A stretch of 64,000 nucleotides of DNA from an uncultured Clostridia bacterium (GCA_944386175.1 CALXAB010000001.1:47645-111644); one strand, 5' to 3'. Numbered from the stretch's first letter, positions 20,095 to 51,350 are shown. Made by a program: numbers and translations. The notes: generated from the letters alone by a model not told the origin.

Positions 20095-20345
20095 ATATAA
20101 TTTTATAAGTACACTTAGTGAACTTTTTCTTAAAAATCACTTCTTTTTTGTTCATTTAGTGAACTTTTGCACTCTAAAAAGCGTTTTTTATCCATTCACT
20201 CGGTGAATTTTTGCATCAGATCTGCATAAAATTTTTGTTTTTTTATTAACTCTTGAAGGCTTGCCCTTCAATGTGTATATGCGTTGCGTAATGCACGCTA
20301 TCCTGCCTTTAGTATTCACTTTAGTTCACCTTATCAAAATTAATT
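20095..20345. repeat. Remnant (right half) of the parS-like palindrome array family, with no recombinase attached
   Basis: About 85-90% identical to the distal 210 bp of the arrays at 36380-36890, 43200-43625 and 50940-51350, including the shared terminus ...TTAACTCTTGAAGGCTTGCCCTTCAATGTGTATA...CCTGCCTTTAGT. Confidence 0.7.
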
Positions 20346-20452
20346 TATGTAAATTGTTGAATTATTTCCTTTTTTATGCTATATTAACTGTATCGTTTCA
20401 AAATCTTCTTTATAAAATTTCTACTCAAAATTATTTCAAAGGAGGTGTATTT

Positions 20453-20791
20453 GTGGATTTAAATCTATTGGAACCTATTATTAATAATCTTGATAAAGCA
20501 ATTCATAAGACTAACTTAAAAGACTCTTTTATAGACGAGTTTATTCATGATTTACAAAGAAGTATTTTAAGGCAAAACCTTGATTATGATTATAGTAAAT
20601 TACCTAAAAATACCATATTTGAAGTCGACTATATTGAAAATGGATTTGCTTCTTGTTTAGATACTGCACAAAAACATTCAGAAAAATATTATATTCCAGA
20701 AGAGTTACTTGATGAAACTGCCAAAAATGCAGATTATATTCAACTTGACGGTAACAAATATACTGCTGTTTCTAATCCATATAAAAATTAG
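20453..20791 (+). CDS. Hypothetical protein of about 112 aa
   Basis: The GTG start lies 7 nt after the aaaggagg RBS. The upstream part of the ORF-track ORF (20261-) runs through the repeat and is not coding. Confidence 0.45.
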   Translation: MDLNLLEPIINNLDKAIHKTNLKDSFIDEFIHDLQRSILRQNLDYDYSKLPKNTIFEVDYIENGFASCLDTAQKHSEKYYIPEELLDETAKNADYIQLDGNKYTAVSNPYKN

Positions 20792-21758
20792 TTTCTGCAT
20801 AAAAATAAGAACATATTTGAAACATGCTCTTATAACTTATCTTATTTGCTCCATCTAAATTTAAATCTTTTCTTTTTTCTATTATAATATTATTTCCATC
20901 ACTCTTTAGCCATATAGTTCCATCATCTTTTGTTATAAATATATTATCTTCTTCTATTCCAATATTTTTTAGTCTTTCTAAAACATTTAAGTTTGGATGA
21001 TTATACCCTTCATTATTTCCAGCAGATATGATTGCATAAGTAGACTTTACTATATTTAAAAATTCACTAGATGTAGCATCTTCTGCTCCATGATGTGCAA
21101 CTTTTAATACATCAATTTTTTCTAAACCTTCTATTTTACTGTCTAAGTTATTTGTTAAATCTCCTGTAAATAAATATTTTGTATTTATATATTCAAGTTC
21201 AATTACTATTGATGTATCATTTAATTTATTTTTGTCAGTTGGATCTGAATTATCAACATTTAAACACTTCCACTTTGCTTTTCCTAAACTATATTCGATG
21301 TCTTGCGATTTCTCTATCTGTTGCTTGTTAATATTATTTTCTTTTATATAGTCTTCTAATTCAGTATAAAATCTTTTTCCTTGATATGTACTATATGGCA
21401 TATACAATGTTTTTACATTTATATTTGTTAATACTTCTTGCATCCCACCAATATGGTCTTCATCTATATGTGTTCCAATTAAATAATCTAATTCAACTAT
21501 TCCCTGTTCTTTCAAAAATTTTGATATATATTCTCCATCAGAGCCATTTCCACAATCTATCAACATATTGACATCATTATTCGTGACTAATATACTTTCA
21601 GCTTGTCCTACATTAAAAAAAATTATATTTAATTCTGAACTATCAATTCCAATATTTCCATATTTATTATTTAAGTTCACTTCTATAAATATTAAGAAGA
21701 TTAATACTAGTATAATTAATAATACTGTTAAAATAGATTTTAAGTTTTTCTTATTCAT
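20772..21758 (-). CDS. Membrane-anchored MBL-fold metallo-hydrolase of the ComEC/Rec2-related family
   Basis: N-terminal TM. HIDEDHIGG metal-binding motif and KVAHHG later in the sequence. 328 aa. Confidence 0.65.
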   Translation of the reverse strand: MNKKNLKSILTVLLIILVLIFLIFIEVNLNNKYGNIGIDSSELNIIFFNVGQAESILVTNNDVNMLIDCGNGSDGEYISKFLKEQGIVELDYLIGTHIDEDHIGGMQEVLTNINVKTLYMPYSTYQGKRFYTELEDYIKENNINKQQIEKSQDIEYSLGKAKWKCLNVDNSDPTDKNKLNDTSIVIELEYINTKYLFTGDLTNNLDSKIEGLEKIDVLKVAHHGAEDATSSEFLNIVKSTYAIISAGNNEGYNHPNLNVLERLKNIGIEEDNIFITKDDGTIWLKSDGNNIIIEKRKDLNLDGANKISYKSMFQICSYFYAETNFYMD

Positions 21759-21767
21759 ACTCTCCTC

Positions 21768-23140: not shown

Positions 23141-23203
23141 CCATATGTATTTTAAACTAAAAACTCACACTTGTCAAGTTTGTGTGAGTTTTTAGTTTAA
23201 TTT

Positions 23204-23755: not shown

Positions 23756-23768
23756 TTACTTTTCCTCC

Positions 23769-27291: not shown

Positions 27292-27975
27292 TTACTTTCC
27301 AAAAATTCTACTTGCTTCTACTTGATTATATAATGCTTCTTCATTATCATAATAGAAAGCCCATTCTTTATCTCCATATGAAAAGTGCCACCACTCACCA
27401 TCATATGGAGCAAATCCTTCTTTCATCATAATTTTTCTTAATAATTTCCTATTATTTTTTGCTTCCTCTGATATATTTTCAGTTTCATAATAGCATTGTA
27501 TAGTACTATAATCTAATATATCTGAACCAAAATCTAATATTTTATTTTCAACATCATCATATATAGCTGCATCAACTGCTCCACCTGTCGGATGTCCTGA
27601 AACAACTGGTACAGCAATTTTCTCATGTATGTATTCATACATCTCTATTTCATCTTCAAATTTATCCTTTACTTCTTCTAGGATTTCATTAAAATATTTC
27701 TCTTGTTTTTTCATATCTCTAAAACCATATACTACTATTATTTTATAATTTTCATTTACTTCTTTTAACTTTTTTGCAACATTTATAAGTTTTTTATAAA
27801 CAGTTTTTCTTACAGCTATTTGATGTCCATATTCCAACATATTTCTTCTTTCTTGATATTTTCCAATCACTAGGTCATCTTCTAATGGAAGTAGTACAAA
27901 TTCTTCTTTGTCTGTTTCTTCATTAAAGTTCTCAATAGTTATCAAATCTTCATATCTTACAAAATTATTTGCCAT
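27292..27975 (-). CDS. D-alanyl-D-alanine dipeptidase (VanX/DdpX, peptidase M15D)
   Basis: SGHPTGGAVD and EWWHF match the VanX zinc-binding and catalytic motifs. 227 aa. Confidence 0.8.
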   Translation of the reverse strand: MANNFVRYEDLITIENFNEETDKEEFVLLPLEDDLVIGKYQERRNMLEYGHQIAVRKTVYKKLINVAKKLKEVNENYKIIVVYGFRDMKKQEKYFNEILEEVKDKFEDEIEMYEYIHEKIAVPVVSGHPTGGAVDAAIYDDVENKILDFGSDILDYSTIQCYYETENISEEAKNNRKLLRKIMMKEGFAPYDGEWWHFSYGDKEWAFYYDNEEALYNQVEASRIFGK

Positions 27976-27997
27976 TTGTATATTTGTCCTTTCTTTC

Positions 27998-29317
27998 CTA
28001 TTTTTTATTTTTTTGTAGTATTTTTATAGTTTCATCTAGCGTTATAGTATTTTGTTCCCCTGAATTCATATCTTTTAATGTTATTACATTATTTTTTATT
28101 TCTTCATCTCCTATAATTATTACATAATTTGCATTAATATTATTAGCATACTTGAATTTTTTTCCTATCTTTTGTTGTTCAATATTAATTTGTACATTTA
28201 TACCCTTTTCTCTTAGTTTTGCAGCTACTTTTGCACACATTTCACAGTCATCTGTCATTGAAATTATTAATACTTCTGCAATTGTTTCTTCAGTTGCTGA
28301 AATTATTTTATTATCTATTAGTTGAAAAAATAGCCTTGATAATCCTATTGAAATCCCTACTCCTGGCATTTTTCTATCAGTATAAAATTCTGTTAAATTG
28401 TCATATCTTCCTCCTGAACATATACTTCCTAAGTTTTTATATTGATTTAAAAATGTTTCATAAACTGTTCCTGTATAATAATCTAACCCTCTAGCAATAC
28501 TCAAATCAATTTTATAATTCTCTTCTGGAACTCCAAATATTTCAATAAATTTAGAAACTTCTTTTATTTCTTTTATACCTTCATTAAATATTTCATTATT
28601 AATTTGCATATTTTCTAATTCTTTTATTTTTTCTTCATTGTTTCCTCCTATACCCAAAAATTTAATTATAACATTAGCTTTTTTTTCTGGCATAAGTACT
28701 AATAATTCTTTTTTTACTTCTTCTTTTCCTATTTTTTCTATTTTATCAATTATTCTTAATATTTCAGATGATATATCTTCAAGTTTTAAACTTGAAAAAA
28801 GTCCATTTAATATTTTTCGATTATTTATACATATTGTAAAATCATCAAATCCTAACTTTTTAAAGGTATTATATATAATAGATGGAATTTCTGCATCATT
28901 TATTATTGACAATTCACCATCTCCAATAATATCAACATCACATTGATAAAATTCTCTATATCTTCCTCTTTGAGGTTTCTCACCACGATATACTTTTCCT
29001 ATTTGGTATCTTTTAAATGGAAAACTTAATTTATCATAGTATTCAGTTACATATTTAGCTAATGGTACTGTTAAATCAAACCTCAAAGCTAAATCTGTAT
29101 CTCCTTTTTCAAATCTATAAATTTGTTTTTCCGTTTCTCCTCCAGCTTTGGCCAGTAAAACATTTGCATCTTCTATTATTGGTGTATCTAATGGTACAAA
29201 ACCATATTGTTCGTAAGATTCTTGTATTATCGCTCTCATTTTATTAAATAATATTTGTTCATTAGGTAATAATTCCATAAATCCTGGTAAAGTTTTTGGT
29301 TGTATTTTCCCTTTCAT
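27998..29317 (-). CDS. hisS: Histidyl-tRNA synthetase, second copy in the window
   Basis: 439-aa class II aaRS. Motif 1 region ...GFVPLDTPIIE, the HisRS histidine-binding region GGRYD and a C-terminal anticodon-binding domain. Confidence 0.85.
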   Translation of the reverse strand: MKGKIQPKTLPGFMELLPNEQILFNKMRAIIQESYEQYGFVPLDTPIIEDANVLLAKAGGETEKQIYRFEKGDTDLALRFDLTVPLAKYVTEYYDKLSFPFKRYQIGKVYRGEKPQRGRYREFYQCDVDIIGDGELSIINDAEIPSIIYNTFKKLGFDDFTICINNRKILNGLFSSLKLEDISSEILRIIDKIEKIGKEEVKKELLVLMPEKKANVIIKFLGIGGNNEEKIKELENMQINNEIFNEGIKEIKEVSKFIEIFGVPEENYKIDLSIARGLDYYTGTVYETFLNQYKNLGSICSGGRYDNLTEFYTDRKMPGVGISIGLSRLFFQLIDNKIISATEETIAEVLIISMTDDCEMCAKVAAKLREKGINVQINIEQQKIGKKFKYANNINANYVIIIGDEEIKNNVITLKDMNSGEQNTITLDETIKILQKNKK

Positions 29318-29329
29318 TCTAACTCCTCC

Positions 29330-29980
29330 TTAATAATCTCCTTTAATATTTTTTTTCTTTTTATTTCCTTGTTTTTTATGTCTTTCAATTAATTTATCTT
29401 CTATTTCTTGTATTGAAACATTAGATTTAAACATTAATACTAGTGTATGATATATTAAATCAGAAATTTCTCCTATCAATTCTTTTTTATCTATGTTTTT
29501 CGCAGCTATTACTGTTTCAGTTGCTTCTTCACCAACTTTTTTGCATATTTTATCTATTCCTTCATCTAATAAATAATTAGTATATGAATTTTCCTTTGGA
29601 TTAATATTTCTATCAATTATCTGATTATAAATATCCTGTAAGATATTTGTATCATCATTATTTTCATAAGAAACTATTTCCTTAAAAAAGCATGAATAGT
29701 TACCAGTATGACATGCTCCTTTTCCTTCCTGCTTTACATAAATCAACAATGTGTCGTTGTCACAATCTAAATACATGCCTTTTATTTCTTGAATATTTCC
29801 TGATGTTTCTCCTTTATGCCATAATTCTTTTCTACTTCTTGAATAAAAACATGTTTGTTTGTTTTCTATCATATATTTATAACTATCTTCGTTTACATAT
29901 GCTAACATCAATACTTCTTTTGTTTTATAATCTTGTACTATTGCTGGAATTAACTCCATCTTTTTAAAATCTGGCTTCAA
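29330..29980 (-). CDS. hisI: Bifunctional phosphoribosyl-AMP cyclohydrolase / phosphoribosyl-ATP pyrophosphatase (HisIE)
   Basis: HisI N-terminal domain ([27 protein letters not shown]...C...C zinc ligands) plus a HisE C-terminal domain. Confidence 0.85.
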
Positions 29981-30082
29981 TATTCTTCAACTCCTAAAAT
30001 ATTTATATTACTTATATATTGTTATTTTTATTGTGGGGAAAATAATACAATTATTTTCCCCTTTGATTAAACACTTTAAATC

Positions 30083-31447
30083 TTAAAGCTCTTTATCAAG
30101 GTAGATTTTTAAATCTTCCTCTTTTCTCTCTTTCTGTAATCTTCTCATCTTGTCAACACTACTTACACCTTCAAGTAATTTAAATCCTAATTTCACGGCA
30201 ATATTATAGGACATAGATTTACCTATTTCGAGAGTTTTCATATATACTCTTTCATAACCATCCTCTTTCATTACTTCAATAGCATATTTCATTAACTCTG
30301 TCCCAATTCCTTTTCCACGAAACTCTTGTAAGACTGTTATATCAGCAAGATATGCTGTTTTTTCTGGATTATCATAATGGACAGGATGCCTATCTTTTAA
30401 TAACATTTTTCTAAAAGTTACTGTTCCTATACATTCATCTCCAATATAATATCCATAAACATGACCGTATTTTGTTAGTTCTTCATATTCTTCTTTGATT
30501 AAATCATCTGTCCAATCCTCACAATATGGGGGATTACAAAATACTTTATATGCTTTTATAAAGTCTTTTATTTTATCTGGTGTTATTGCTTTGATTCTCC
30601 GTGCCATCATAGTTTTTTCCTCCTCTAATTCAATTGAATATTTTTTTCCATCAGTTTCAACATTGCCTAAAATAGTAGCCTTTTCAAAATTCCCTTCTTT
30701 ATAGATTATGTCTGCTGTAATAATCAATCCAGAAGGCTGTAAAACATCAATTTTTACACTTTCATTTTTTAAATAAGCTTCTACAATACATGTAGCTGTT
30801 GTCCCAGACCCACATGCTGTTTCATAGAAAAGTGTATGAATTTCCTTAACCCATACAATTGGATTAATCTTTATTACACCTTTTTCTTTTTCGCAGAACA
30901 TAACTCCTACTGCTTCACTATATTCAAGATGATATTTATGAATATAGTGCATCCCCATTGCTTTTAAATCCTTCTTATTAATAAGATATTTTTTAGCAAT
31001 TTCATCTTGAATAACTACAGTTACCATACCATTCATTTTTACAATAAAAATTCCTGGCTCTTTTTCAGTGATTACATCATCACCATGATAAAGTGGAATT
31101 TCGCACCATGCCTTTCCTTCTTCATCAACTCCTGCATTAATCAAATCTTTAGAATTTACAAACATTTGTAAATTCCCTGATTTACCATTTAAATAAATGG
31201 TTGCTGCACTTCTTGTTGCATTACCACAAAACTCTCCCCCTGCCATTTGCAATTCAGGTTTATGATTTAATTCAATAAACCCAACCTGCTCAACATTAGA
31301 ATGTTTTGCCATAATCAAATCGTTGATTTTCTTTCTCTGTTTTTGTGTATATTCCAATCCATAAACGAATGCTGTATCATTACCAGCTGGTCTATAAATT
31401 GAATATTCCACATTAGTTACAGATGCTTTGCAATGTTTTTCGTTCAT
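30083..31447 (-). CDS. Fusion of a DapF-family PLP-independent amino-acid racemase/epimerase with a C-terminal GNAT N-acetyltransferase
   Basis: AGNDTAFV, GGEFCGNATRS and TACGSGTTA correspond to the DapF/HisR-type GNDF, CGNG and ACGSG two-cysteine motifs. C-terminal ...FRGKGIGTELMKYA... is the GNAT acetyl-CoA-binding motif A. Confidence 0.6.
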   Translation of the reverse strand: MNEKHCKASVTNVEYSIYRPAGNDTAFVYGLEYTQKQRKKINDLIMAKHSNVEQVGFIELNHKPELQMAGGEFCGNATRSAATIYLNGKSGNLQMFVNSKDLINAGVDEEGKAWCEIPLYHGDDVITEKEPGIFIVKMNGMVTVVIQDEIAKKYLINKKDLKAMGMHYIHKYHLEYSEAVGVMFCEKEKGVIKINPIVWVKEIHTLFYETACGSGTTATCIVEAYLKNESVKIDVLQPSGLIITADIIYKEGNFEKATILGNVETDGKKYSIELEEEKTMMARRIKAITPDKIKDFIKAYKVFCNPPYCEDWTDDLIKEEYEELTKYGHVYGYYIGDECIGTVTFRKMLLKDRHPVHYDNPEKTAYLADITVLQEFRGKGIGTELMKYAIEVMKEDGYERVYMKTLEIGKSMSYNIAVKLGFKLLEGVSSVDKMRRLQKERKEEDLKIYLDKEL

Positions 31448-31579
31448 AATGTTCTCCTTTCTTTGAATTGAAGGTAAGTATAAAATATTTATACTTAGTA
31501 ATGAATAAATTACATTAATTATTATATATTCATTTTATGTAAAAGTCAAGAAAATCCAGTATATTCAAGACTTTTACGG

Positions 31580-32206
31580 TTATTTATTATTTTGTTTTTC
31601 TATTAAATCAATTAAATTTAAAATTTCTTCCTTCTTATACTTAAATTTAGTCTTATTACAAATTAATCTTGTACTTACATCTGCTATTTTCTCTATAACT
31701 TCTAAGCCATTCGCTTTCAATGTTGCTCCTGTTTCTACTATATCTACTATTGCATCTGTTAATCCAACTACTGGTCCTAATTCAACTGACCCTTCAAGTT
31801 TTATTATTTCAACATCTTCATCTTTACTTTCAAAATAGTTTTTAGCAACACTAGGATATTTTGTTGCTATCCTTTTTCTTCTATTTAATTTTAGATTTTT
31901 ATATTCAGGATAACTACAGACTGCAAATGAGCATTTTCCTATTTCCAAATCTAGTAATTCATAATAATTTTTAAAAGAATTTTCCAGTAATGTATCACTA
32001 CCTACAATTCCTATATCAACAATACCATGTTCAATAAAGGTAACTACATCGTTTGACTTTGCAAATATTATTATCATTTTATCTTCTACGTTTATTTGTA
32101 ATTCTCTTTTTTTATTTATCATAGATTCTACATTATATCCTAATTTTTCTAACATTTCTGTCATCTTTTTTTCTATTCTACCCTTTGTTAAGGCTATCTT
32201 TAACAT
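31580..32206 (-). CDS. hisG: ATP phosphoribosyltransferase, short form (HisG-S)
   Basis: About 205 aa HisG short form overlapping hisZ. Start taken at [10 protein letters not shown]. Confidence 0.85.
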
Positions 32207-33176
32207 TTTGTTCACCTGCTCTTTCTACTGCTTTTAATATATTATCCATATAATAAGCCATTCCTATGGCTGGTACATCCTTTCCGAAATTGTTATATAA
32301 TTTGTCATATCTTCCACCACTTATTATAGGTTCTTCTACAAATTTACTATATACTTTAAATATAATTCCTGTATAATATTCCATATTAGGAACACAAGCC
32401 AAATCAAACAAATCTTGTTGTTTCATATTCATGGTTTCATACAATTCTTTCAATTCTATTAGACTATTCTTTAATTCATTATCTCTTAATTTTTCTATGG
32501 TTCTTACTAATATTTCTATATTTCCATTAAGTCTTGGTAAAGATATTAAAAAATTGCTTATATTTTTATCTATATTATATTTATCACAAAATTTTTTTAA
32601 TCCACTTATATTTTTTTGTAGTAATAGCTGCGAAAACTCTTTCTTTTTTTCAGATCCAACTATTTGGCATAATCTATTATAAAAACTAGCTGAACCAAGT
32701 TCTATCTTTAAATCCTTTAATCCAAAAAGTGGTAAAGATTTTTGTAATAATGATATACACTCTACATCTCCTTCTATTGCTTTTTTTCCAATTAATTCTA
32801 TCCCTACTTGGTATATTTCGCTATTCTTTCCTTTATGTTCCTTTTCTTTTCTATATACTTTTCCAAAATAGCAATACCTTTTTATTTCATCTTTTTTTTG
32901 TGATACATAGTATCTAGCTATTGGAACTGTAAAATCCCATCTTAAAGCAACATCTTTTCCTTCTTTATTTATATATTTGAATAAAGTACTCTCATCTAAA
33001 TTCTTATATACACTTTTATATAATTCCACATATTCAAATGTTGGCATCAGCATTTCTATATATTTTTCATCATAGAATATCTTTCTCAATTTACTTTCAA
33101 AATTTCTTAATTTATTAACATTCTCAGTAATTACCCCACTACTTTCTTCTGGTATTGAAAATTTGTATAATTCCAT
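32178..33176 (-). CDS. hisZ: ATP phosphoribosyltransferase regulatory subunit HisZ
   Basis: A 332-aa HisRS-like catalytic core ([16 protein letters not shown]) without an anticodon-binding domain. Directly upstream of the short-form hisG. Confidence 0.8.
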
Positions 33177-33482
33177 AAAAATTCTCCTTTCACATTAAAA
33201 AGCTATATAGTTAAATAATATCTTTCTATGAATATTATCTACCTATATAGCTTTATATTTTTATATAGGCACATCAAAATCGACTTGTGCCTATACATTA
33301 TATTAGACACAAGTTTAAAAATGATGATGCACTTTATTTATATTTTTAGTTATATTCTTCATTTTTATTCCTCTTTTTTCTTATTTTTAATTATAATACA
33401 TTATTTTTTTATATATGTCAAGTACAAAATTCATTTTTTTTAACATGCTATAACCAATTATGATTATAGCATGCTTTAGATT

Positions 33483-33767
33483 TTACTTAGAGAAAGATAT
33501 AATTGCATAATGTCGCTTTGCATCAATTTGATAATAAGAATGCCCCCTAATATTAATTGGCTTTTCTATTGTTTTAATAGAAATTTTCAGCCCATTACCA
33601 TTTGCCCAGCTTGTTAGTTCTCTTTCCATAGCAACATCTACATCCCTTTTTTCTTTTTCAATCTGAACTTTCTTGAAAAATACTAATGCTACTTTTACTT
33701 TGAACTTAATCCATTCCGTATCAAACCGTGACCTTTCTCTTCTTTTTCTACTTTCAAATTTTGACAT
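33483..33767 (-). CDS. Hypothetical basic protein of 94 aa, possibly a gene fragment
   Basis: ORF only. Arg/Lys-rich N-terminus. No recognisable domain. Confidence 0.3.
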   Translation of the reverse strand: MSKFESRKRRERSRFDTEWIKFKVKVALVFFKKVQIEKEKRDVDVAMERELTSWANGNGLKISIKTIEKPINIRGHSYYQIDAKRHYAIISFSK

Positions 33768-33873
33768 ATAGATTTACCTCCTACTATTTATTTTATTTAT
33801 TTTATCACATACACTTATATTTTTCAATTAAAATTTTAGGAAGCCATGCATTATACACAGCTCCCTATGATTT

Positions 33874-38670: not shown

Positions 38671-40379
38671 TCCTCCATATTATTTACTTGAATATCATAA
38701 ATTTCTTTATATTCTCCATTCTTATTCAATAATTCTTCATGTGAACCACTCTCTATGATTTCTCCGTTTTTCATTACAAATATGACATCAGCATTTTTTA
38801 CAGAAAGAATTTTTTGTGCAATTATAATTTTTGTACATCTATATTTCAAATTATTAATATTTTCAGTAACTTCTAATTCAGTTTCAAAATCTAGTGCGGA
38901 AGTTATATCATCTAATATTAATATACTAGGTCTCTTAGCTAATGCTCTTGCCAAAGATAAACGCTGTTTTTCACCTCCTGATAAACTCACTCCATTTTCT
39001 CCTATTATTGTATTAATATCCTCTGGTAAATCAAATACATAATCAGCTTTAGCCAATTTTAAACATTTTTTTATTTCTTCTTCTTTTAAATCTTCATTTC
39101 CAAAACTAACATTATTGGAAATAGTATCAGAAAACAGAAAAGGAGTTTGAGAAACATAACCGATATTTTTTCTTAATGATTTTAATGTATATGTATTTAT
39201 TAAATTATCGTCTATTTCTATCTTTCCACTTGAACATTCTATCAGTCTTAACATCAGTTTTCCAATAGTAGATTTTCCACTCCCTATTTCTCCAATAAAT
39301 GCATAAGTCTTATTGGGCTTTAAATCTAAATTAATATTTTTTATAACTTTCCTATTATTAAGTTTGACATTAACCCCTTTAAAAATAATATTTTCCCAAT
39401 TATTTAATATTAAACTTCCTTTATCTTTTATTTTAGGTTCAGTTTCTAATAATTTTCTTACTTTTGATACAGATACTCTAAATTGTTGCCATTCATTTAT
39501 AAAACCACTTAATTCTATAAACGGTTTTCTTATAGTGCCTATAAAAGAATTAATAATAATAAATTGTCCCATTGTCGTGTAACCTTTTATAACAAATATT
39601 CCCCCAAATAAAGTTAATAATATTTGCATACAATATGATAAAAATGTGACTATATTGTCATAAGAGATATTCATATTTTGTATTTCTAAATTCTTATTTT
39701 TCAAATTTCTATTCTTTACTTTAAAGTTATCTATTTCTTTTTGTTCTGTTGCAAATGTTTTGATTAATCTATTTCCTTCTATATTTTCTTGTATATAATT
39801 ATTTAGGTTTGACAAACTTTCTCTTTGATCTTTATATAATTCCTTTGATTTTTTTATATGTTTTTTAGATATAACTGCAATTATAGGAGTAGGTATTAAA
39901 ATAATTAGTGTTAAAATTGGGTTTATATATAGGCAGTAAATTGTAGTTAAAATACTAGTAGTTAACATGCTTATAGATTGTTTTATCACAAAACACATAT
40001 TATGATGAATAATGCTATTATCTGTTGTTAAAAGCGTGCTTATTTCTCCCAAAGTTTTTTCTTCGTAAAAATCTTGATTTAATTCATTCAATTTTTTATA
40101 ACATTCAACTTTTAACTTATGTGCTAAATTAAATCTAACATGATCCATTATTAATATTCCAAAATAAGTTATCAGCCTACCTATAAAATACATACTAATA
40201 GATATAATAAAAAGGTATGGAATAATAGAAAAATTACTCTCATATATACCTTTATCTATTATTTCTCCTAATAGTATAACTGGTAATATTTTAGAAATTC
40301 CTCCACCTAATATTATCATTAAATTTGAAATCCAATATCTAAAATTATATTCTTTAATAAATTTTAATACCCATCTCAT
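38661..40379 (-). CDS. ABC exporter, fused permease-ATPase subunit (heterodimer partner)
   Basis: Six TM helices followed by an NBD with GEIGSGKST, LSGGEKQRLSLARAL and ILILDD. Confidence 0.85.
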   Translation of the reverse strand: MRWVLKFIKEYNFRYWISNLMIILGGGISKILPVILLGEIIDKGIYESNFSIIPYLFIISISMYFIGRLITYFGILIMDHVRFNLAHKLKVECYKKLNELNQDFYEEKTLGEISTLLTTDNSIIHHNMCFVIKQSISMLTTSILTTIYCLYINPILTLIILIPTPIIAVISKKHIKKSKELYKDQRESLSNLNNYIQENIEGNRLIKTFATEQKEIDNFKVKNRNLKNKNLEIQNMNISYDNIVTFLSYCMQILLTLFGGIFVIKGYTTMGQFIIINSFIGTIRKPFIELSGFINEWQQFRVSVSKVRKLLETEPKIKDKGSLILNNWENIIFKGVNVKLNNRKVIKNINLDLKPNKTYAFIGEIGSGKSTIGKLMLRLIECSSGKIEIDDNLINTYTLKSLRKNIGYVSQTPFLFSDTISNNVSFGNEDLKEEEIKKCLKLAKADYVFDLPEDINTIIGENGVSLSGGEKQRLSLARALAKRPSILILDDITSALDFETELEVTENINNLKYRCTKIIIAQKILSVKNADVIFVMKNGEIIESGSHEELLNKNGEYKEIYDIQVNNMEECI

Positions 40380-40511
40380 TTATATTTTTTCTCCAATATT
40401 TATTATATTTTTATATTACTTTTCATATTCTATCATAATTTTATTTCTTTCTCAATAAAATTATAAAGTTTCAAAATATATTTATCCTTACATTTGCTTA
40501 ATTATGAAAAA

Positions 40512-40586
40512 ATCCGCAATAGAAATAATGTCAAGAGCGAGTGATAATGAGTTTATTTACTCTTGATATTATTTTTATTGCAGATT
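40512..40586. promoter_or_regulatory. Long palindromic operator (24-bp arms, 22-bp spacer) with inward-facing TTGACA boxes and divergent promoters
   Basis: CTCCAATAGAAATAATGTCAAGAG ... CTCTTGACATTATT. On the + strand, TTGATA-N17-TAAATT. A near-identical copy at 57947-58026 has TTGACA-N17-TAAAAT. Confidence 0.6.
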
Positions 40587-40821
40587 AAATTTACCCTGCA
40601 AATGTATGAGGCAAAAAATAAGTATCAGTACATATCTACCGACACTTAAATTTATAAAGATTCTCTATTACTTATTTCATAAATTCTTTCTAGCAATTGA
40701 AATAACTGATAATTTTACATATCTACAATTAAACACAACCTATATATGTCATGCTTATCATAGACACAATCTCAAATTCCCTAGTATTTCAAACACTTCT
40801 ATCAATTTTCTAAAATTTAAT

Positions 40822-41004
40822 TTATGTGTTTCCACTTACCACATCTGCAACTACTTTAACTTTCACATCTGAATTTTGATGTTTTTCTCTTCCATATCTT
40901 CCTTTTTTCTCGAAAGTTATAATCTCTGAAAACATATCAAATTCAAGTATTACCTGTCCTGTTTTAGTTGTAGCACTGCCACACATTCCACATGTGTTGG
41001 TCAT
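40822..41004 (-). CDS. Questionable small ORF (60 aa, MTNTCGMCGSATTK...) inside the conserved transporter leader
   Basis: A paralogous sequence at about 58370-58560 is conserved in translation, but that copy has no start codon. It could be a leader or regulatory RNA rather than a protein. Confidence 0.2.
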   Translation of the reverse strand: MTNTCGMCGSATTKTGQVILEFDMFSEIITFEKKGRYGREKHQNSDVKVKVVADVVSGNT

Positions 41005-42679
41005 CTCTGGTTGCAGTAAGTTTTAAATGTTGTTTATCTCCTGTTGCAGTAAAATTGTCTTTACAATTTATTTCTGTTCCGTTTTTACAAATAAACCTTA
41101 TTGTATATGGATTTATTGTACCATTTTCTAATGTTTCCCCAATTATTACTTTCTCTATTATACATTCAAAAATATCTTTATCAAAATTTTTCATTATTTC
41201 CATATCTTTAAATAAACCTTTAAACTTGTTTAATCTATGTTTAATACTTTCATTTCTGTTTGTGTCTTTTAGTAGGTTTTGTATTTTCTGTTCTACTTTT
41301 AATAGTTCTATGTTTAGCTCATCATATTTTAAAGTATATTGTTCTTTATTTATTCTGCCTTCTAAGTTTAGTTCTAATAGATTATTAAGTTTCTTGTTTA
41401 TTTTCTCTTTGTCTTTTTCTAGCTTATTTACTACTGTTTCTGTAGTATTTTCTTTTAAGACATTTTCTATTTTTTCTAAAAAATCTTCTACTACTTTTTT
41501 ATTGTTGTTACAGAGTATTCTATATCCTTGTACAAAACAATCTTCTAGTATTTCTTCTGGTATTGCTTTACAGTATGGGCATTCTTCTTTTCCATGTTTT
41601 GCTCTTTTGATACATTGCCATACTGCTTTTTCATATTTTCTTTTTGAGTTCCAGTTTCTTCTTGTAAGTAAGCTACCACAAAATCCACAATATAATTTAC
41701 TACTAAAAGCATATTTCTTACTATAGTTATTATTTCTTCTTCCTGTTTCTCTTGTTCCTACTCGTTTTATTCTTATTTCTTGTACTCTATCAAATAACTC
41801 TTTACTAATAATTGGCTCATGATGTTCTTTTATATAATGCTTTTCTGCTTCTCCTAAATTGCTTAATCTTTTATGTGATATTGGATCTATTGTAAATGTT
41901 TTTCCCATTAGCACATCTCCAATATATTTTTCATTTTTTAGTATTCCTCTTATTGTTGATTCGTTCCAATTATCATTACCTTTTGGGGATTTAATGCCTT
42001 TTGCTTTTAGTTCTTTTGCTATTGTACTTGAACCTATTCCGTCTACATATCTTTCAAATATATATTTTATAACTTCTGCTTGTTCCTCATTTATAGTTAT
42101 CTGTTTTGTTATTAAATCATAGTTATAACCGTAACAACCATTATAGCCAATTAACTCTCCCCTGTCTTTCTTCATTTTTAGTCCAAGCAATACATGTGAA
42201 GATATGTTCTCACTTTCTTGTTGTGCCATAGCACTTAATACTGTTAGTAGCATTTCTCCTGTTCCTGATAGAGTATTTAGATTTTCTTCTTCAAATAAAA
42301 CTGCAATGTTCTTTTCTTTTAGCATTCTTACATATTTTAAAGTATCTAATGTGTTTCTAGCAAATCTTGATATGGATTTTGTTAAAATCATATCAAATTT
42401 TCCAGACATTCCATCTGTTATCATTTTCATAAAGTCTGTTCTTTTAAAATCTAATGTGCCACTTATAGATTCATCTGCATATATTCCTGCAAATTGCCAT
42501 TCAGATTTGCTATTGATTTTTTCATCATAATACTTTAATTGTGATTGGTAACTATTTAATTGTTCTTTATTTCCTGTACTAACTCTACAATATGCACATA
42601 CTCTTAATCTTTCTTTGATTGTTGTACCTGTTACTCTGTTAATTCTTCCGTTTGTTTTCTCTATGACTTGAATTTCCAT
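40964..42679 (-). CDS. Large serine recombinase (resolvase domain plus recombinase and zinc-ribbon domains), 571 aa
   Basis: Catalytic RVCAYCRVSTG...YQSQ motif near the N-terminus, a C4 zinc ribbon (CGFCGS...C..C) and a coiled-coil C-terminal region. It is 60-70% identical to the recombinase at 48681-50573. Confidence 0.85.
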   Translation of the reverse strand: MEIQVIEKTNGRINRVTGTTIKERLRVCAYCRVSTGNKEQLNSYQSQLKYYDEKINSKSEWQFAGIYADESISGTLDFKRTDFMKMITDGMSGKFDMILTKSISRFARNTLDTLKYVRMLKEKNIAVLFEEENLNTLSGTGEMLLTVLSAMAQQESENISSHVLLGLKMKKDRGELIGYNGCYGYNYDLITKQITINEEQAEVIKYIFERYVDGIGSSTIAKELKAKGIKSPKGNDNWNESTIRGILKNEKYIGDVLMGKTFTIDPISHKRLSNLGEAEKHYIKEHHEPIISKELFDRVQEIRIKRVGTRETGRRNNNYSKKYAFSSKLYCGFCGSLLTRRNWNSKRKYEKAVWQCIKRAKHGKEECPYCKAIPEEILEDCFVQGYRILCNNNKKVVEDFLEKIENVLKENTTETVVNKLEKDKEKINKKLNNLLELNLEGRINKEQYTLKYDELNIELLKVEQKIQNLLKDTNRNESIKHRLNKFKGLFKDMEIMKNFDKDIFECIIEKVIIGETLENGTINPYTIRFICKNGTEINCKDNFTATGDKQHLKLTATRDDQHMWNVWQCYN

Positions 42680-42881: not shown

Positions 42882-43058
42882 TTACAAAAGTTTATAATCT
42901 TTTAAGATTTTTCTTTTTATTTCAATATATTCTGAATCTAGTATTAAGTTTTCTCTAAACAAATTATTTAAAAACAATAATTCCATGCTACAGTCTAGCA
43001 TATTATTATCTTTTAGTTGTTTAGAGTTATCTACTTCTATTTTATAATTATGTAGCAT
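42882..43058 (-). CDS. Small conserved protein of 58 aa upstream of a serine recombinase
   Basis: Start taken at MLHNYKIEVDN. It is colinear with the 61-aa paralogues (ML.E.K.DN.K...N.F.C...Y.E.K..IL.EY.L). Confidence 0.45.
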   Translation of the reverse strand: MLHNYKIEVDNSKQLKDNNMLDCSMELLFLNNLFRENLILDSEYIEIKRKILKDYKLL

Positions 43059-43199
43059 GAAATTGCTCCTTTTCTTTAAATTTGAAAAGAAAAAGAACAA
43101 AGAAACTAGAATCTTTCTAATCCCTTTGCTCTTTCTCTTTCATACTACCATTATATTATCGTGTTTTTATATAGTCAATTCCATTTTTATTCCCTCTTT

Positions 43200-43625
43200 T
43201 CTATTTTTGATATAATTCTAGTATCTAATTTTATAAGTACACTAAGTAAACTAAAAATTGTATAATTTTAAATTGCAGTTCACTTGGTGTACTAGAAAAA
43301 TATAACAAAAGTTCACTAAGTGTATTTGTAAATTTTGTTTTATTTTCACATTCACTTAGTGAACTAAATTCAAAAATATTATTCAATATCAAGTACACTT
43401 GGTGAACTTTTTCCCAAAATAAGTGAATTTTTTTAATTTTTTAATTCACCATTTTTAATTTTGAACGAAGAATAGCGGGTTTGAGCCAGTTCACCGAGTG
43501 AATTTTTACATCATATTTGCATAAAATTTTTGTTTTTTTATTAACTCTTGAAGGCTTGTCCTTCAATATGTATAGGCATTTTGTTAAGAATGCTATCCTG
43601 CCCTCATTTTCAATGAGGTATTTTG
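43200..43625. repeat. parS-like palindrome array (GTTCACTTGGTGTAC, GTTCACTAAGTGTAT, TTCACTTAGTGAAC, GTACACTTGGTGAAC, AGTTCACCGAGTGAAT)
   Basis: Same family as the 36380-36890 array. It ends with ...TTAACTCTTGAAGGCTTGTCCTTCAATATGTATAGGC. Confidence 0.75.
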
Positions 43626-43788
43626 CTCTTAAAATGTACTTATTCTACTTAATTAAATATACTTATCCTTAAATCCTCTTAATCGAAAAACAATGTGCTT
43701 TTAAAAATAAGTCAAGGTTGTGCGATAGCACATTTATTTAAACCTTGACTTGTTTTTATAAAGCACATTATACTTTTCTAAAAGGATT

Positions 43789-45240
43789 TTAACTATTTAT
43801 AAAAAATTGAATTATTGCAAATATTCCCATATCTGAAATTGTTTTTATTGCATCTACATTAGCAATAACTTTATAAGGGTGATGAATTACTAAATCTAAA
43901 TAGTTTTTCATTCCTTCATTATTAAAACATGTCTCCCATGCTCTTGAAATAGTATCGTCATCAATAAGATTTTGTTTATCTATTGATATTTTATTTATAA
44001 TCTTCTCTAATCTCAAGTCCAAATTATTATTTGCAGATTTCCATTTTTCCCATTTTCCTTTGTTTATTAAAAAATAGATGCTTGATTGTTCTAATAATGA
44101 GCGGATTAAAAAGCAATATGATATTGGGTAATTTTTATATAAATTTCCAAATGATAAATGCTGAATTTCATAGCATAGATTTTTAATCCCTTTAGCTCTA
44201 TCATTACTATATTTTAGTTTGCTACAATTAATATTTTTAAATAAAATACTATTGTCTTTTCTTGTTAATCTGATTTTATTAAATGCTATACTTTCATTTA
44301 TTTTATTTTTTACTATTTCACTTTCATTGGCATTATTATGTTTTTCTTCTCTACCATTAGAAAATATCTTCATTTGTTCATTTTTATTTTCTAAATTTTC
44401 ATTTATTTTATCTTTGCTGTCAAACCTTTCACTAACATTATTTTCTATATTGCCATACAAATATTTTTCTATATTAGCATTATTTTTTATTGTGTTACTT
44501 GTAATCCTACCACTTACAATATCTTGAACAATTCGTAATACTTTCTTGTCTAATTCATTTATTGAAGACAATGGCATTAAAACATTGTTATTAAAAGAAA
44601 TATTCAGATATTCTTTACCAACTTTTGAAGAAACAATCTTTTCAAACTTATTTACTGAAAAATTATTGTCAACTCCATCAAATGCTTTTTTACAAAATCC
44701 TTGTAATTGTGAAAATATATTTTTTACTCCCATTTTATCTTCAAATCTTTTTATTGAAGCTGTATCCCATTTTAAAGCTCCTGTATCAGTTGTATGTACA
44801 TTTCTTATATATCCAGCACAATCTTCAAATGAAGTGGCCACATAACAAGGAATTTGAAAATATTCTTCTCCTTGAATTCCTGCACTCATTGCATATATGC
44901 TTCTTATTTGTGTATATGAAAAGTATTTAAAAGATTCTACCAATTTAGGATTTTTTAAGATTTTCATTGCTGTTAATCTTCTATTACCATCCCATGCCAC
45001 AAATTTTTCTTTTTTCTCATCATAAGTGACTGTAACTATTGATTGTGGATACCAACCATTTGTGTAAATATCACTAATTAACTTATGCATTGCCTTCGCT
45101 TCTTTAGAATTTCTCACCAATTGTTGCATTATAAAAAGTTCATCCGCTATCATAATTTGTGTATGTCTTGGATTCTCTGGATTTACTAATATTTTTTCTA
45201 TGTCTATTAGTTGATGTTCTCTCATATATAATTCCCCCAT
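43789..45240 (-). CDS. ParB/Srx-superfamily (DUF262-like, DGNRR motif) protein with a long C-terminal extension
   Basis: LVNPENPR and VAWDGNRRLTAM are the ParB N-terminal-domain boxes. A possible His-Me/HNH-like DLVIHHP lies near the C-terminus. Confidence 0.55.
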   Translation of the reverse strand: MGELYMREHQLIDIEKILVNPENPRHTQIMIADELFIMQQLVRNSKEAKAMHKLISDIYTNGWYPQSIVTVTYDEKKEKFVAWDGNRRLTAMKILKNPKLVESFKYFSYTQIRSIYAMSAGIQGEEYFQIPCYVATSFEDCAGYIRNVHTTDTGALKWDTASIKRFEDKMGVKNIFSQLQGFCKKAFDGVDNNFSVNKFEKIVSSKVGKEYLNISFNNNVLMPLSSINELDKKVLRIVQDIVSGRITSNTIKNNANIEKYLYGNIENNVSERFDSKDKINENLENKNEQMKIFSNGREEKHNNANESEIVKNKINESIAFNKIRLTRKDNSILFKNINCSKLKYSNDRAKGIKNLCYEIQHLSFGNLYKNYPISYCFLIRSLLEQSSIYFLINKGKWEKWKSANNNLDLRLEKIINKISIDKQNLIDDDTISRAWETCFNNEGMKNYLDLVIHHPYKVIANVDAIKTISDMGIFAIIQFFINS

Positions 45241-47920: not shown

Positions 47921-47921
47921 A

Positions 47922-48506: not shown

Positions 48507-48680
48507 TCTATCTAAATTCTCCCTATCTCTATTCTTTTATATTTTGACCATATTTTACCATAAAACAATAAAAAAATAAAGCATATAACAAATTAAATTA
48601 TTACATACTTTACCTTTCAAGTTTTATCTCCAAACATTTTTATTTTTCGTTGACAAATCGTTGACATTATCAACAAGAAA

Positions 48681-50573
48681 TTATACTACTCCGCACACCA
48701 TGTCAACTTCTATCGTTACTTTAATTTTATGATTTTCTGTTCTTTTAACCTTATTTTTGCCTTTTCTATCAAAACTAATAAAATCTTCAAAAGCAGTAAA
48801 TTGGGCTATTGTATCGAATCTTTCAGACATAGCACCGAGCAACACTCCACATGGCTCACACCCAGTCTGTAGATAGTTTTGGCTTACCTCGTATGATGAC
48901 TGTTGCAAACTACCTTGATTTTTATCTTTTTGACATTTGATTTCGTTTCCAGATTTTAGGATAAATGTTATTACTCTTGGATTTACATCTCCATTTTGTT
49001 CTTTTTCTCCTATTATAACTTTTTCTATCATTAATTCAAAAACATCTTTATCAAATGTTGGCATTATTTCATCATCTTTAAATAGACTTTTAAACTTGTT
49101 TAATCCTTGATTTAAACTAATTGAATCTTCTAACTCTAGTTGTAAATGTTCTTGCTCTTTTTCTATTTTGTTTATCTTGTTTTGTAATTTTGCCTTTTTA
49201 TCTTTTAATGTTTCAAGTGTTATTGTTCCATTCAAGTTTAAATCAATTAACTTGTCTATCTTTTCTTTTAAAGTTTGTTTTTCTTCTTCTAATTTTTTAA
49301 TAGAACTTTCATTACTTTCTTCTTGTATGATTTCTTCCATTTGTTTTAAGAATGTTTTGATTAGTTTTTTGTTATTATTACATAAAAGTTTATAACTTTC
49401 TGTAAATGCTTCTTCTATAATGTTTTCTTTCATTGCTTTACAATATGGGCAATTTTCTTTTCCATGTTTTACAAATTCCATACAATGCCATACCGTAATA
49501 CTATTTTTTGTTCCAGAGTGCCAGTTTCTTCTTGTTAATAAACTTCCACAAAAACCACAATATATTCTACTACTAAAAGGATATTTTCTGCTAAAGTTTC
49601 CTTTTCTTCTTCCAGAGCCTCGTACTCCTCCTCGCTTTTGTAATATTTCTTGTGCTTGATTAAACATTCTTTCTGAAATAATTGGTTCATGATGTTCTTG
49701 TATGTAATACTGATTTTCTTCTCCCATATTGACTACTCTTCTATGTGAGATTGGATCTGTTGTATATGTTTTTCCTTGTAAGACATCTCCTTTGTATTTT
49801 TCGTTTTTCAAAATACCTCTTATAGTTGAGTCATGCCATTGTTTCTTTCCTGTTGGTGTTTTATATTTCATAGCAGTTAGTTCTTTTGCAATTGTTGTGC
49901 AACCTACTCCTTGACAGTATCTTTCAAAGATATATCTTACTATTTCTGCTTCTTGATAATTTACTGATATTTTCTTTGTTTCTTTATCATATACATATCC
50001 TAAACATCCATTATATCCAATTAATTCTCCTCTTTTTTGTTTCATCTGTAATCCTAGTTTTACATGAGAAGATATATTTTCGCTCTCCTGCTGTGCCATT
50101 GCACTCATTACTGTTAGCATTACTTCGCCAGATAATTCTAAAGTATTGATGTTTTCTTCTTCAAAATAAATAGTGATTCCTTTTTCCTTTAATAATCTTA
50201 CATACTTTAAAGTATCTACTGTATTTCTTCCAAATCTTGATATTGATTTTGTAATTATCATGTCAAATTTGTTTTCTGTTGCATCTTGCATCATTCTCAT
50301 AAAGTTATCTCTTTTATAGTCAAGTGTTCCTGTTATCCCTTCATCTGCATAAATCCCTACATAAGTCCAATCACTTCTTGATTTTATTTTTTCTTCATAA
50401 TATTTTAGCTGAGAATTATAACTATTTATTTGTTCTTCTTTTTCTGTACTAACTCTTGCATAGGCACATACTCTTAAATTGCCTTTTATAACTTCTCCTG
50501 TTGTTCTATTAATTCTTCCTTTTTTCTTCTCTATTACTTGTACTTTCAAAATTAACCTCTCTTTCTCAAGCAT
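48681..50573 (-). CDS. Large serine recombinase, 630 aa
   Basis: Catalytic RVCAYARVSTEKEEQ...YNSQ motif, a zinc-ribbon CGFCGS...CPYC and a coiled-coil. It is paralogous to 40964-42679. Confidence 0.85.
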   Translation of the reverse strand: MLEKERLILKVQVIEKKKGRINRTTGEVIKGNLRVCAYARVSTEKEEQINSYNSQLKYYEEKIKSRSDWTYVGIYADEGITGTLDYKRDNFMRMMQDATENKFDMIITKSISRFGRNTVDTLKYVRLLKEKGITIYFEEENINTLELSGEVMLTVMSAMAQQESENISSHVKLGLQMKQKRGELIGYNGCLGYVYDKETKKISVNYQEAEIVRYIFERYCQGVGCTTIAKELTAMKYKTPTGKKQWHDSTIRGILKNEKYKGDVLQGKTYTTDPISHRRVVNMGEENQYYIQEHHEPIISERMFNQAQEILQKRGGVRGSGRRKGNFSRKYPFSSRIYCGFCGSLLTRRNWHSGTKNSITVWHCMEFVKHGKENCPYCKAMKENIIEEAFTESYKLLCNNNKKLIKTFLKQMEEIIQEESNESSIKKLEEEKQTLKEKIDKLIDLNLNGTITLETLKDKKAKLQNKINKIEKEQEHLQLELEDSISLNQGLNKFKSLFKDDEIMPTFDKDVFELMIEKVIIGEKEQNGDVNPRVITFILKSGNEIKCQKDKNQGSLQQSSYEVSQNYLQTGCEPCGVLLGAMSERFDTIAQFTAFEDFISFDRKGKNKVKRTENHKIKVTIEVDMVCGVV

Positions 50574-50616
50574 AGAGAATCTTTATGTTTGTATTATATA
50601 TTAAAATCTTATATTT

Positions 50617-50802
50617 TTAAATACCTATATGAGTTAAATCATATTCTTTTAAAATATTTTGTTTTAGTTCTAAATATCTTTCCTCTTTAATTAGTCCTGC
50701 ATTATATGTTTTATTTAGAATTGCTATTTTAATGCTACAATTAAAAATATTTTCATTTAGTTTTACATTTTTCGTATTATCAAATTTTACTTCGTACAAC
50801 AT
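50617..50802 (-). CDS. Small conserved protein of 61 aa upstream of a serine recombinase
   Basis: About 95% identical to 36169-36354. Start at MLYEVKFDN. The upstream extension in the ORF track is not supported. Confidence 0.5.
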   Translation of the reverse strand: MLYEVKFDNTKNVKLNENIFNCSIKIAILNKTYNAGLIKEERYLELKQNILKEYDLTHIGI

Positions 50803-50939
50803 AAAAATTCTCCCTTGCTTAAATAAAATTTCAAAAAAGAGCAATAGAAAAAGCCAGTCGGCTAGCTTCGACTGACTTCTTTGTCTGACATTTTTTGATA
50901 ATACGATTATATTATGATGTTCTATAAAGTTCAATTCCC

Positions 50940-51350
50940 GTTTTTTTCCCTTTTTTCTATTTTAATTGATAAAGTGTTGATTTTTTAGTTAGTACACTAA
51001 GTGAACTTGTGTAAAAATTTTTTTAATTATTTTTTACTTTATTATTTTTGAGTTCACTCGGTGTACTTAGTTTTTTATTATATCAATTTTTAGTACACTT
51101 AGTGAACTAATTATAAATTATTTCATAAAATTTAGTACACTTGGTGAACTTTTTCTTAAAAATTACTTATCTTTCGTTCATTTAGTGAACTTTCACACTC
51201 TAAAAGAGATTTTTTAGTCATTCATTCGGTGAATTTTTGCATCAAATTTGCTTAAAATTTTTGTTCTTTTATTAACTCTTGAAAGCTTGACCTTCAATGT
51301 GTATATGCGTTGCGTGATGCACGCTATCCTGCCTTTAGTGTTCACTTTAT
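50940..51350. repeat. parS-like palindrome array (the full copy, contiguous with the intact recombinase module)
   Basis: About 95% identical to 36380-36890 over roughly 0.9 kb when the small ORF and the recombinase 5' end are included. Confidence 0.8.

Follow-up and report, generated by a model that had tools for sequence, protein, structure and literature searches.

The control of a promoter by an array of phased protein-binding sites is a familiar arrangement. In the parC/ParR system of plasmid R1 and at the omega operators of pSM19035, small dimeric proteins bind cooperatively to phased sites round a promoter, the same DNA serving as operator and centromere. Large serine recombinases (LSRs) mobilise cargo in the composite SCC islands, where the LSR Ccr drives head-to-tail accretion of elements separated by repeated cores, the integration site lying in rlmH, outside ccr; the control of LSR excision and integration is usually credited to recombination directionality factors (RDFs) alone. 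Attachment sites (attP) inside a coding gene are known from Mx8 intP, SSV1 int and the integration-dependent immunity of mycobacteriophages, integration altering the C-terminus of an element protein. The SGI1 family carries parS sites for a helper ParB and AcaCD-dependent promoters, SGI1 itself being an integrative mobilizable element with helper-protein sites next to its own promoters (PMC10954446). The DNA analyzed here is a stretch of 64,000 nucleotides from an uncultured Clostridia bacterium (GCA_944386175.1, CALXAB010000001.1:47645-111644; hereafter the window), in which arrays of the palindrome GTTCAC-N3-GTGAAC are found upstream of a small open reading frame (ORF) and an LSR gene. The window has ~25% GC, and almost all its genes are on the minus strand.

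The arrays resemble R1 parC and the omega operators in having several phased sites by a promoter. They differ from both, whose sites are short direct or heptad repeats overlapping the promoter, bound by a protein made from the controlled operon; the sites of the islands are 17-bp palindromes placed 50-110 bp or more upstream, and no binder is self-encoded. SGI1 is likewise an integrative element without a binder gene, with palindromic helper-protein sites beside the promoters of its own maintenance genes (PMC10954446), but it has two 22-bp sites in place of 3-8 phased 17-bp sites, and relies on a tyrosine integrase and a known binder, IncC ParB, whereas the islands have an LSR, a binder predicted from its sites, and no partition genes that could be found. 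As expected for helper-dependent cis sites, the islands carry the sites, and no binder gene in the conserved module. As far as the literature searched shows, the cassette of hairpins, array, promoter and leader has not been described before, nor have its use by three LSR families and its lack of a self-encoded binder.

Palindrome arrays in the window

Matches to GTTCACNNNGTGAAC at up to two mismatches number 20 in the 64 kb, and are confined to four clusters. The same search on dinucleotide shuffles gives 0.68 matches on average, and 3 at most; the arrays are not random, and the repeats observed at first are real.

50992-51234, minus strand: array c4, five palindromes at up to two mismatches (cluster 50992-51190) and one degenerate site with three mismatches at ~51220
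43237-43503, minus strand: array c3, six palindromes
36542-36774, minus strand: array c2, six palindromes
20109-20208, minus strand: array c1, a truncated remnant with three palindromes

Array c1 breaks off past its third palindrome, with neither promoter nor small ORF nor LSR behind it; the region 20095-20345 is a truncated remnant, as noted earlier. The four array regions align, and have in common a block featuring ...TTGAAGGnCAAGCCTTCAAGAGTTAA... and GGCAGGA[T/A]AGC; the block found at the ends of all four clusters contains CTCTTGAAGGCTTGnCCTTCAA and ...TCCTGCC. The common end ...CCTGCCTTTAGT, reported earlier, is that of three copies only, copy 3 having CCTGCCCTCATTTTC instead and a conserved block that extends ~190 nt beyond.

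No palindrome at up to one mismatch was found in the remainder of the window, nor in ~60 kb of island-free DNA of related hosts (a small sample). A large host regulon is therefore unlikely.

Arrays look like recurrent deletion endpoints. In the loci L098, L102 and L097/L110, as in array c1 of the window, the truncation falls inside the array, which is joined to unrelated DNA; in L102 the array is immediately followed by what remains of an LSR tail, its last 42 codons. Insertions also occur: a 76-aa zinc-finger ORF (MqsA-like by eye) lies between the first palindrome and the remaining array in L123:3175-3405, and ~1.1 kb of DNA separates the array from the small ORF in L017 and L117.

Site sequence and helical phasing

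The logo derived from 162 sites is a 17-bp symmetric palindrome, A-GT[T/A]CAC-[T/C]-N-A-GTG[A/T]AC-T. Of its 17 positions, 13 have an information content of 1.1-2.0 bits, and the central 3 bp have 0.2-1.4 bits; the flanks do not exceed 0.6 bits, with the exception of position -2 (0.78). The arrays are not detected by Tandem Repeats Finder, which returned no unit repeat. An origin by tandem repetition is thereby ruled out and, the flanks being low in information, only the sites, not the spacers, would be under selection. The variant half-sites GTACAC and GTTCAT break complementarity, which favours protein recognition over hairpin formation.

Start-to-start distances between sites cluster at 32-33, 41-44, 60-63 and ~95 bp, all whole helical turns. 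The last site begins either 60-63 bp (9 copies) or 71-74 bp (8 copies) ahead of the -35 hexamer, the two classes being one helical turn apart. Phase coherence of the site-to-promoter distances peaks at a period of 10.5 bp (R = 0.365, n = 120), a moderate value inflated by the shared ancestry of the copies. The pattern is as expected for dimers binding cooperatively on one face of the helix, and the symmetric logo, the conservation of the sites and the whole-turn spacing make the palindromes look like sites for a dimeric DNA-binding protein.

To this extent the original prediction, of palindromes bound by dimers, stands. The assignment to the parS/ParB/KorB type does not, as the geometry differs and no Par genes were found in the ORFs scanned: the half-sites of parS are contiguous (TGTTNCAC followed directly by GTGAAACA), those of the arrays are 3 bp apart and lack the extra T.

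Organization of the module

Relatives were gathered in four ways, by LSR protein, by a metagenome scan with the invariant hairpin, by small ORF and by flanking host gene. The module was found in 39 copies (32 distinct), all from human-gut metagenomes or metagenome-assembled genomes, the sources being labelled Candidatus Merdicola or uncultured Clostridium and having ~25% GC. The tight linkage of arrays to LSR operons, inferred earlier from the window, is confirmed by this set. All 39 copies have 2-8 sites behind one and the same hairpin block, and the order of parts is constant. Reading along the minus strand, hairpins are followed by palindromes, a sigma-A promoter, a leader terminator, the small ORF and the LSR.

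Two variants of the upstream edge are found. The short one starts at CTAAAGGCAGG, a few nt behind the codon that terminates the last cargo gene. The long one, to which the majority of the copies belong, copy 3 of the window included, begins ~190 nt earlier with a three-tier hairpin and T-run (a bidirectional terminator), then hairpin H0 (CCTCATTnAAAATGAGG) overlapping GGCAGG. In hairpin H1, 4 of 6 pairs have undergone compensatory changes and pairing is kept in 92% of cells; none of 500 shuffles reaches the observed covariation score. H1 and the invariant hairpin H2 are separated by CTATACACA; downstream of H2 are ~40 nt of AT-rich DNA, and in 31 copies out of 39 the first palindrome is met at +63 from H2. 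Past the palindromes an A-rich stretch leads to a near-consensus sigma-A promoter, TTGAYT-17-TATAAT, and to a leader hairpin with T-run, whose sequence varies between subtypes while the pairing is kept. A ribosome-binding site (RBS), an ORF of 58-61 aa and the LSR close the module. The parts found in the window are listed below.

51279-51342, minus strand: boundary block c4, with GGCAGGATAGC, covarying H1, CTATACACA and invariant H2 (51279-51297)
43548-43775, minus strand: boundary block c3, long variant, with three-tier hairpin terminator (~43690-43775), H0 (43602-43618), GGCAGG, H1 and H2 (43548-43566)
36819-36883, minus strand: boundary block c2, H1 and H2, starting 8 nt past the stop codon of an ABC transporter gene
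20253-20323, minus strand: boundary block c1, H1 and H2
50906-50934, minus strand: promoter c4, TTGAAC-17-TATAAT, the last palindrome beginning 72 bp upstream of its -35 hexamer
43150-43178, minus strand: promoter c3, TTGACT-17-TATAAT, 11 of 12 consensus positions
36456-36484, minus strand: promoter c2, TTGAAC-17-TATAAT
50850-50869, minus strand: leader hairpin and T-run of c4, terminator or attenuator, between promoter and small ORF
43091-43135, minus strand: equivalent leader hairpin of c3, from the terminator scan
~36400-36419, minus strand: equivalent leader hairpin of c2, placed by the c2/c4 homology offset, not by the scan
50617-50802, minus strand: small ORF of c4, 61 aa, two-helix hairpin, conserved LSR partner
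42882-43058 and 36169-36354, minus strand: paralogues of the small ORF

Ordinary rho-independent terminators, or simple hairpins, do not account for the arrays, the terminator scan flagging the leader hairpin and H0 and no palindrome, and variant half-sites being unpaired. At gathering thresholds no RNA families and no tRNA or tmRNA targets were found; only spurious miRNA-like hairpins matched at E < 1.

The leader hairpin and T-run lie ~25 nt downstream of the operon promoter, ahead of the RBS of the small ORF, and could act as an attenuator or give rise to a small RNA of ~55 nt. Between the small ORF and the LSR start, at 50593-50621 (minus strand), an inverted repeat overlaps a further promoter-like site, TTTAAA-17-TATAAT; the LSR may have a regulated promoter of its own.

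Recombinases and small ORFs

The Pfam domains Resolvase, Recombinase and Zn_ribbon_recom were found only in the ORFs 40964-42679 and 48681-50573, both on the minus strand (window ORFs scanned from 19155 to 63951, except those between 21768 and 33176).

48681-50573, minus strand: LSR-4, 630 aa, body up to the core at 48843-48853, the last ~55 codons being the tail of the next element
40964-42679, minus strand: LSR-3, 571 aa, core at 40984-40994, the tail that follows (40826-40989) in the +1 frame
35965-36125, minus strand: LSR stub of ~49 codons (35977-36125), fused in frame to a C-terminal fragment of PurD, the ORF continuing to 35451

Four serine-recombinase modules had been counted in the window. 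Only two LSRs are intact; downstream of array c2 nothing is left of the operon but the small ORF and ~49 codons from the start of the LSR, array c1 has no LSR, and all are on the minus strand. Two of the supposed recombinases (36892-38670 and 38661-40379) turned out to be ABC exporters by Pfam. The LSRs of the window are ordinary members of the LSR family of Firmicutes mobile elements, their N-terminal domain matching PDB 3g13 at 1e-57, with relatives up to 48% identical in plasmids and phages.

The same boundary, array, promoter and leader precede two further LSR families (one in L123, the other in L124 and L106), which are ~30-34% identical to the LSRs of the window, lack their C-terminal tail, and are accompanied by unrelated small ORFs. 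One type of array serving LSRs so divergent, the LSR itself is unlikely to be the binder.

The small ORF has no match in Pfam or PHROG, and no named homologue among 182 relatives. The model (pLDDT 78) is a hairpin of two helices without any DNA-binding fold, and the search for structural neighbours gave none below E = 1. Homologues are found directly upstream of an LSR in ~29 loci devoid of arrays (L018-L086), in diverse Bacillota. Being with the LSR where arrays are absent, the small ORF is regarded as a conserved LSR partner rather than the binder of the array, for which it had been a candidate; it may be RDF-like, a candidate recombination directionality factor. The 58-61-aa homologues have a SHOCT-like C-terminal motif.

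The product of 43789-45240, once taken for ParB-like, has no ParB domain by Pfam, PHROG or PDB, its only match being a PHROG of unknown function; it has no Pfam match and no sequence relative in PDB. No candidate binder was thus found in the conserved module by Pfam, PHROG, tblastn for O-like proteins, fold search, distribution of the small ORF or divergence of the LSRs, and the binder is therefore most likely supplied in trans.

Function of the arrays

The interpretation preferred here, to which a probability of about 40% is given, is that the array is a cooperative regulatory platform, laid out on one face of the helix, by which a trans-acting dimeric protein controls the promoter of the small ORF and LSR operon. 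The conservation and phasing of the sites, the fixed architecture, the linkage to three LSR families and the lack of a self-encoded binder are seen in the sequences; the binding of a protein, its action on transcription, the sign of the effect and the source of the protein we infer. A dimeric sequence-specific protein, coming from the host or from a co-resident helper (phage or conjugative element), would bind the 17-bp palindromes. As the sites share a helix face and keep register among themselves as well as with the -35 box, dimers bound to them could cooperate, and wrap or loop the DNA, setting the output of an intrinsically strong sigma-A promoter. The leader terminator hairpin may be a second checkpoint ahead of small ORF and LSR, and the output controlled would be LSR expression, hence excision or integration. 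SGI1, integrative and mobilizable, with helper-protein sites next to its own promoters, provides a precedent (PMC10954446).

Several points weigh against this. No candidate for the predicted binder was found in the conserved module. No site overlaps the core promoter, the distance upstream from the -35 box being 50-110 bp or more; this excludes simple occlusion, and a near-consensus promoter has no obvious need for an activator. Phase coherence, as said, is moderate, and its statistics are swollen by common ancestry. The fixed distance of the first site from covarying hairpins suggests a composite cis site, made up of a structure in ssDNA or RNA and of protein sites, and more similar to an origin of transfer (oriT) or of replication than to a plain operator, and the same core palindrome makes up origin iterons in phages.

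This last coincidence was followed in viral contigs. A scan for two perfect sites retrieved 12 loci (L005-L016, IMG/VR) of 25-65% GC, each with 4-7 sites at 21-22 bp spacing, as in L012:11814-11890, L009:13988-14086 and L011:45-135. Where coordinates were checked, the arrays lie in a putative initiator gene (L012, L016, L007 and L008, for example); five of the six array-containing ORFs scanned against PHROGs match O-like or DnaD-like replication initiation proteins, and two match HTH_36 or HTH_34 in Pfam. Lying inside initiator ORFs, these arrays are lambda-type origin iterons, and GTTCAC-N3-GTGAAC is, judging from such matches, a widely shared phage iteron. The island arrays, which have the identical core, could then mimic origin iterons recognized by a lambda-O-like initiator, so that an infecting or induced phage would replicate the excised island, amplifying it in the manner of a satellite, or the array would titrate the initiator as a natural decoy of the origin. 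The low-GC phage L011 has the same extended site, GTTCACTnAGTGAACT; anti-phage systems, AbiE and Lamassu among them, abound in the cargo, and a precedent is reported in the PLEs of Vibrio cholerae, phage satellites using an LSR. No relatives of the low-GC phage initiator were found in INPHARED. Such mimicry is nonetheless held unlikely. Island sites are 3-4 turns apart (32-44 bp), not two, and lie in non-coding DNA upstream of a promoter rather than within an initiator gene; tblastn found no O-like gene in the window or in the element loci; the 39 copies include only two DnaA-box matches, at one mismatch, and no AT-rich unwinding region stands out above a background of 75% AT. Moreover, the elements are absent from IMG/VR, and an unrelated phage contig of high GC has the same palindrome as 15 dispersed operator-like sites. 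The palindrome occurring in phages both as iteron and as operator-like site, identity of the motif does not by itself name the family of the binder. The contig concerned (L126, IMGVR_UViG_3300014969_000021, GC 0.65) carries 15 copies of GT[T/C]CACTSAGTGAAC, 12 perfect and 3 with one mismatch, spaced ~0.5-1.5 kb over 13 kb, a stoperator-like operator set.

The resemblance of multiple phased sites flanking a promoter to R1 parC or omega-type operators would also fit a centromere-like set, bound by a partition adaptor acting in trans, or serving as operator and centromere as in R1, that stabilises the excised circle. SGI1 carries parS copies for a helper ParB (PMC10954446). Yet no ParA, ParB, ParM or ParR domain, and no ParBc or CbiA match, was found in the window ORFs scanned (19155 to 63951, except between 21768 and 33176), 43789-45240 included, the cargo of related loci has no obvious partition, phage or conjugation genes (by eye, without a Pfam scan), the geometry of the sites is unlike that of parS, and the excised form shows no sign of replication, leaving partition nothing to act on; this explanation is quite improbable. 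So is, to a similar degree, autoregulation by a self-encoded binder, either the LSR or the small ORF as an RHH-like dimer whose strand forms on dimerisation. Arrays of this kind most commonly serve autoregulation, the small ORF comes first in the operon, and its 12 N-terminal residues alternate in a strand-like manner in a low-confidence part of the model, where a monomer prediction would miss an RHH strand. The model is, however, a bare helical hairpin without significant structural neighbours, matches in Pfam and PHROG are lacking, the C-terminal motif looks, from our reading of the sequence, like a SHOCT-type oligomerisation motif, pairs of small ORF and LSR are widespread without arrays, and identical arrays precede LSRs ~30% identical with unrelated small ORFs. 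Very unlikely, finally, is an oriT or relaxosome region making the islands mobilizable, with the palindromes binding an accessory protein from a co-resident conjugative element, beside a covarying hairpin and a nick region ...TCCTG/CC. The compensatory changes in H1, the fixed distance of the first palindrome from the hairpins, and the end of short-variant homology ~10 nt past a TATCCTGCC-type motif would suit it, as would the presence, 7 nt past H1 in four copies, of the window and of L001 type, of TATCCTGCC, which resembles the MOBP nick consensus, YATCCTG/Y. Most copies, however, read TTTCCTGCC, losing the conserved A; wobble pairs show no bias to the putative nicked strand, the long variant extends ~190 nt past the motif, the array has no BLAST match among 72,556 plasmids, and no relaxase or MobC-like gene is apparent in the element loci, the cargo having been inspected by eye rather than by Pfam scan.

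Putative attachment core and tandem elements

As far as ...SEPC in the LSR-4 type, or ...HMWSV in the LSR-3 type, LSR homologues align colinearly; beyond it they diverge. Past this switch point they have an immediate stop, a short junk tail, or one of three tail families of ~55 aa, bodies and tails being freely combined. The DNA at the switch point contains a common core, CATGTGGARTG, found three times in the window.

58527-58537, minus strand: core with no LSR body upstream
48843-48853, minus strand: core within LSR-4
40984-40994, minus strand: core within LSR-3
58365-58537, minus strand: left junction of the island, formed by the end of host homology, the core at 58527-58537 and an orphan LSR tail ORF (58365-58529)

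Homology to host DNA, here the flank of a conserved gene for a membrane protein, stops 10-15 nt before the core at 58527-58537. One and the same host-left flank is joined at the core to two different tails (L017:3366 and L021:6126), and both junctions of an element of ~6.3 kb are found in L017. The search for an empty attB, by homologues of the 529-aa membrane protein encoded in the flank, gave none; in related species other genes lie downstream and the core is missing. We infer that attP is inside the 3' part of the LSR gene, and that integration would truncate or swap the C-terminus of the recombinase. The core being within the LSR gene, the recombinase of one element would read into the C-terminal tail of its neighbour. 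If attP is so placed, the window comprises at least three elements arranged in tandem, head to tail.

58537 to 48843: element E1 (APH, GNAT, Sel1, AbiE, 617-aa protein)
48843 to 40984: element E2 (HD, His_Phos, AlbA_2-type regulator, 483-aa protein)
40984 to ~35965: element E3 (two ABC exporters; LSR deleted after codon 49)

A fourth, decayed element possibly ends at array c1.

The arrays are 1.9-2.3 kb away from the junction core. The hairpin block is the upstream edge of the conserved backbone and not the end of the element, as the shared boundary had been interpreted; as att site, it is replaced by the core in the 3' end of the LSR gene. The same distance does not fit the arrays being accessory sites of a serine-resolvase res site, which lie <100 bp from the crossover and are bound by the recombinase, nor do LSRs only ~30% identical. 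purD was discarded as integration target, only a C-terminal fragment of it being present, and the repeat 40469-40912 / 57907-58455 corresponds to LSR tail and non-coding DNA, not to the 5' end of purD.

Like the SCC islands, these are LSR cargo elements set head to tail and separated by a repeated core; unlike in SCC, the core is inside the LSR gene, so that neighbours would exchange the C-terminal ~55 residues. The genes interrupted in Mx8, SSV1 and mycobacteriophages code for tyrosine integrases or repressors, not for an LSR, and no example of a serine recombinase with attP inside its own gene was met in the literature searched.

In LSR-3 the tail (40826-40994, minus strand) is intact but in the +1 frame, and the ORF stops at ...WQCYN*. 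The same ending is found in 11 listed homologues of LSR-3 type, while P0072 and P0078 read through in frame; the frame break could denote frameshifting or a deliberate short form. Downstream of the tails is a conserved non-coding stretch of ~500 nt (40416-40830 and 57852-58365, minus strand), with a 14-bp inverted repeat, AATAATGTCAAGAG...CTCTTGACATTATT, and an embedded TTGACA; it may control a cargo promoter.

Cargo and neighbouring genes

Cargo is highly variable among elements, and includes AbiE, Lamassu, HD, NUDIX, GNAT, ABC exporters (36892-38670 and 38661-40379 in the window) and others. The regions 12972-13489 and 53513-54030 are 68% identical at the DNA level, and a second AbiEii-like gene, apparently split, is found at 13013-13564 / 13551-14153. 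Between array c1 and the LSR stub resides a cluster of histidine-related genes (27292-35205), a near-identical island copy of which is found at L134:11150-19063. According to Pfam, the L134 copy contains two HisRS-type genes, hisZ-like, hisG and hisIE genes and a VanY-type peptidase; in the window the scan covered 33874-35205 only (HisRS-type). The cluster could be cargo of the decayed fourth element, or host DNA.

Implications

Conserved and portable, the cassette described here is used by three unrelated LSR families within one gut clade, and probably requires a factor acting in trans. It offers a handle on the signal by which LSR islands would decide when to move, whether its source is the host, a phage or some conjugative helper. 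The att core within the LSR gene is a more surprising by-product. A further reading, speculative and rather unlikely as a whole, joins array and core. The array would be a platform for sensing a protein made by a co-resident element or an invading one (a phage O-like initiator, a regulator of an integrative and conjugative element), whose binding would switch on excision, perhaps amplification, of an island carrying defence cargo. The attP in the LSR gene would act as a second, built-in state switch: with the last ~55 residues of the LSR removed or swapped by integration, the recombinase made would differ between the circular, the singly integrated and the tandem state, and directionality would be set by the integration state rather than by a separate regulator alone. 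The core inside the LSR gene accounts for the odd C-termini that many of these LSRs have in databases, and for those mining LSRs and att sites for genome engineering it means that what is annotated in an integrated copy may be a chimeric or truncated protein.

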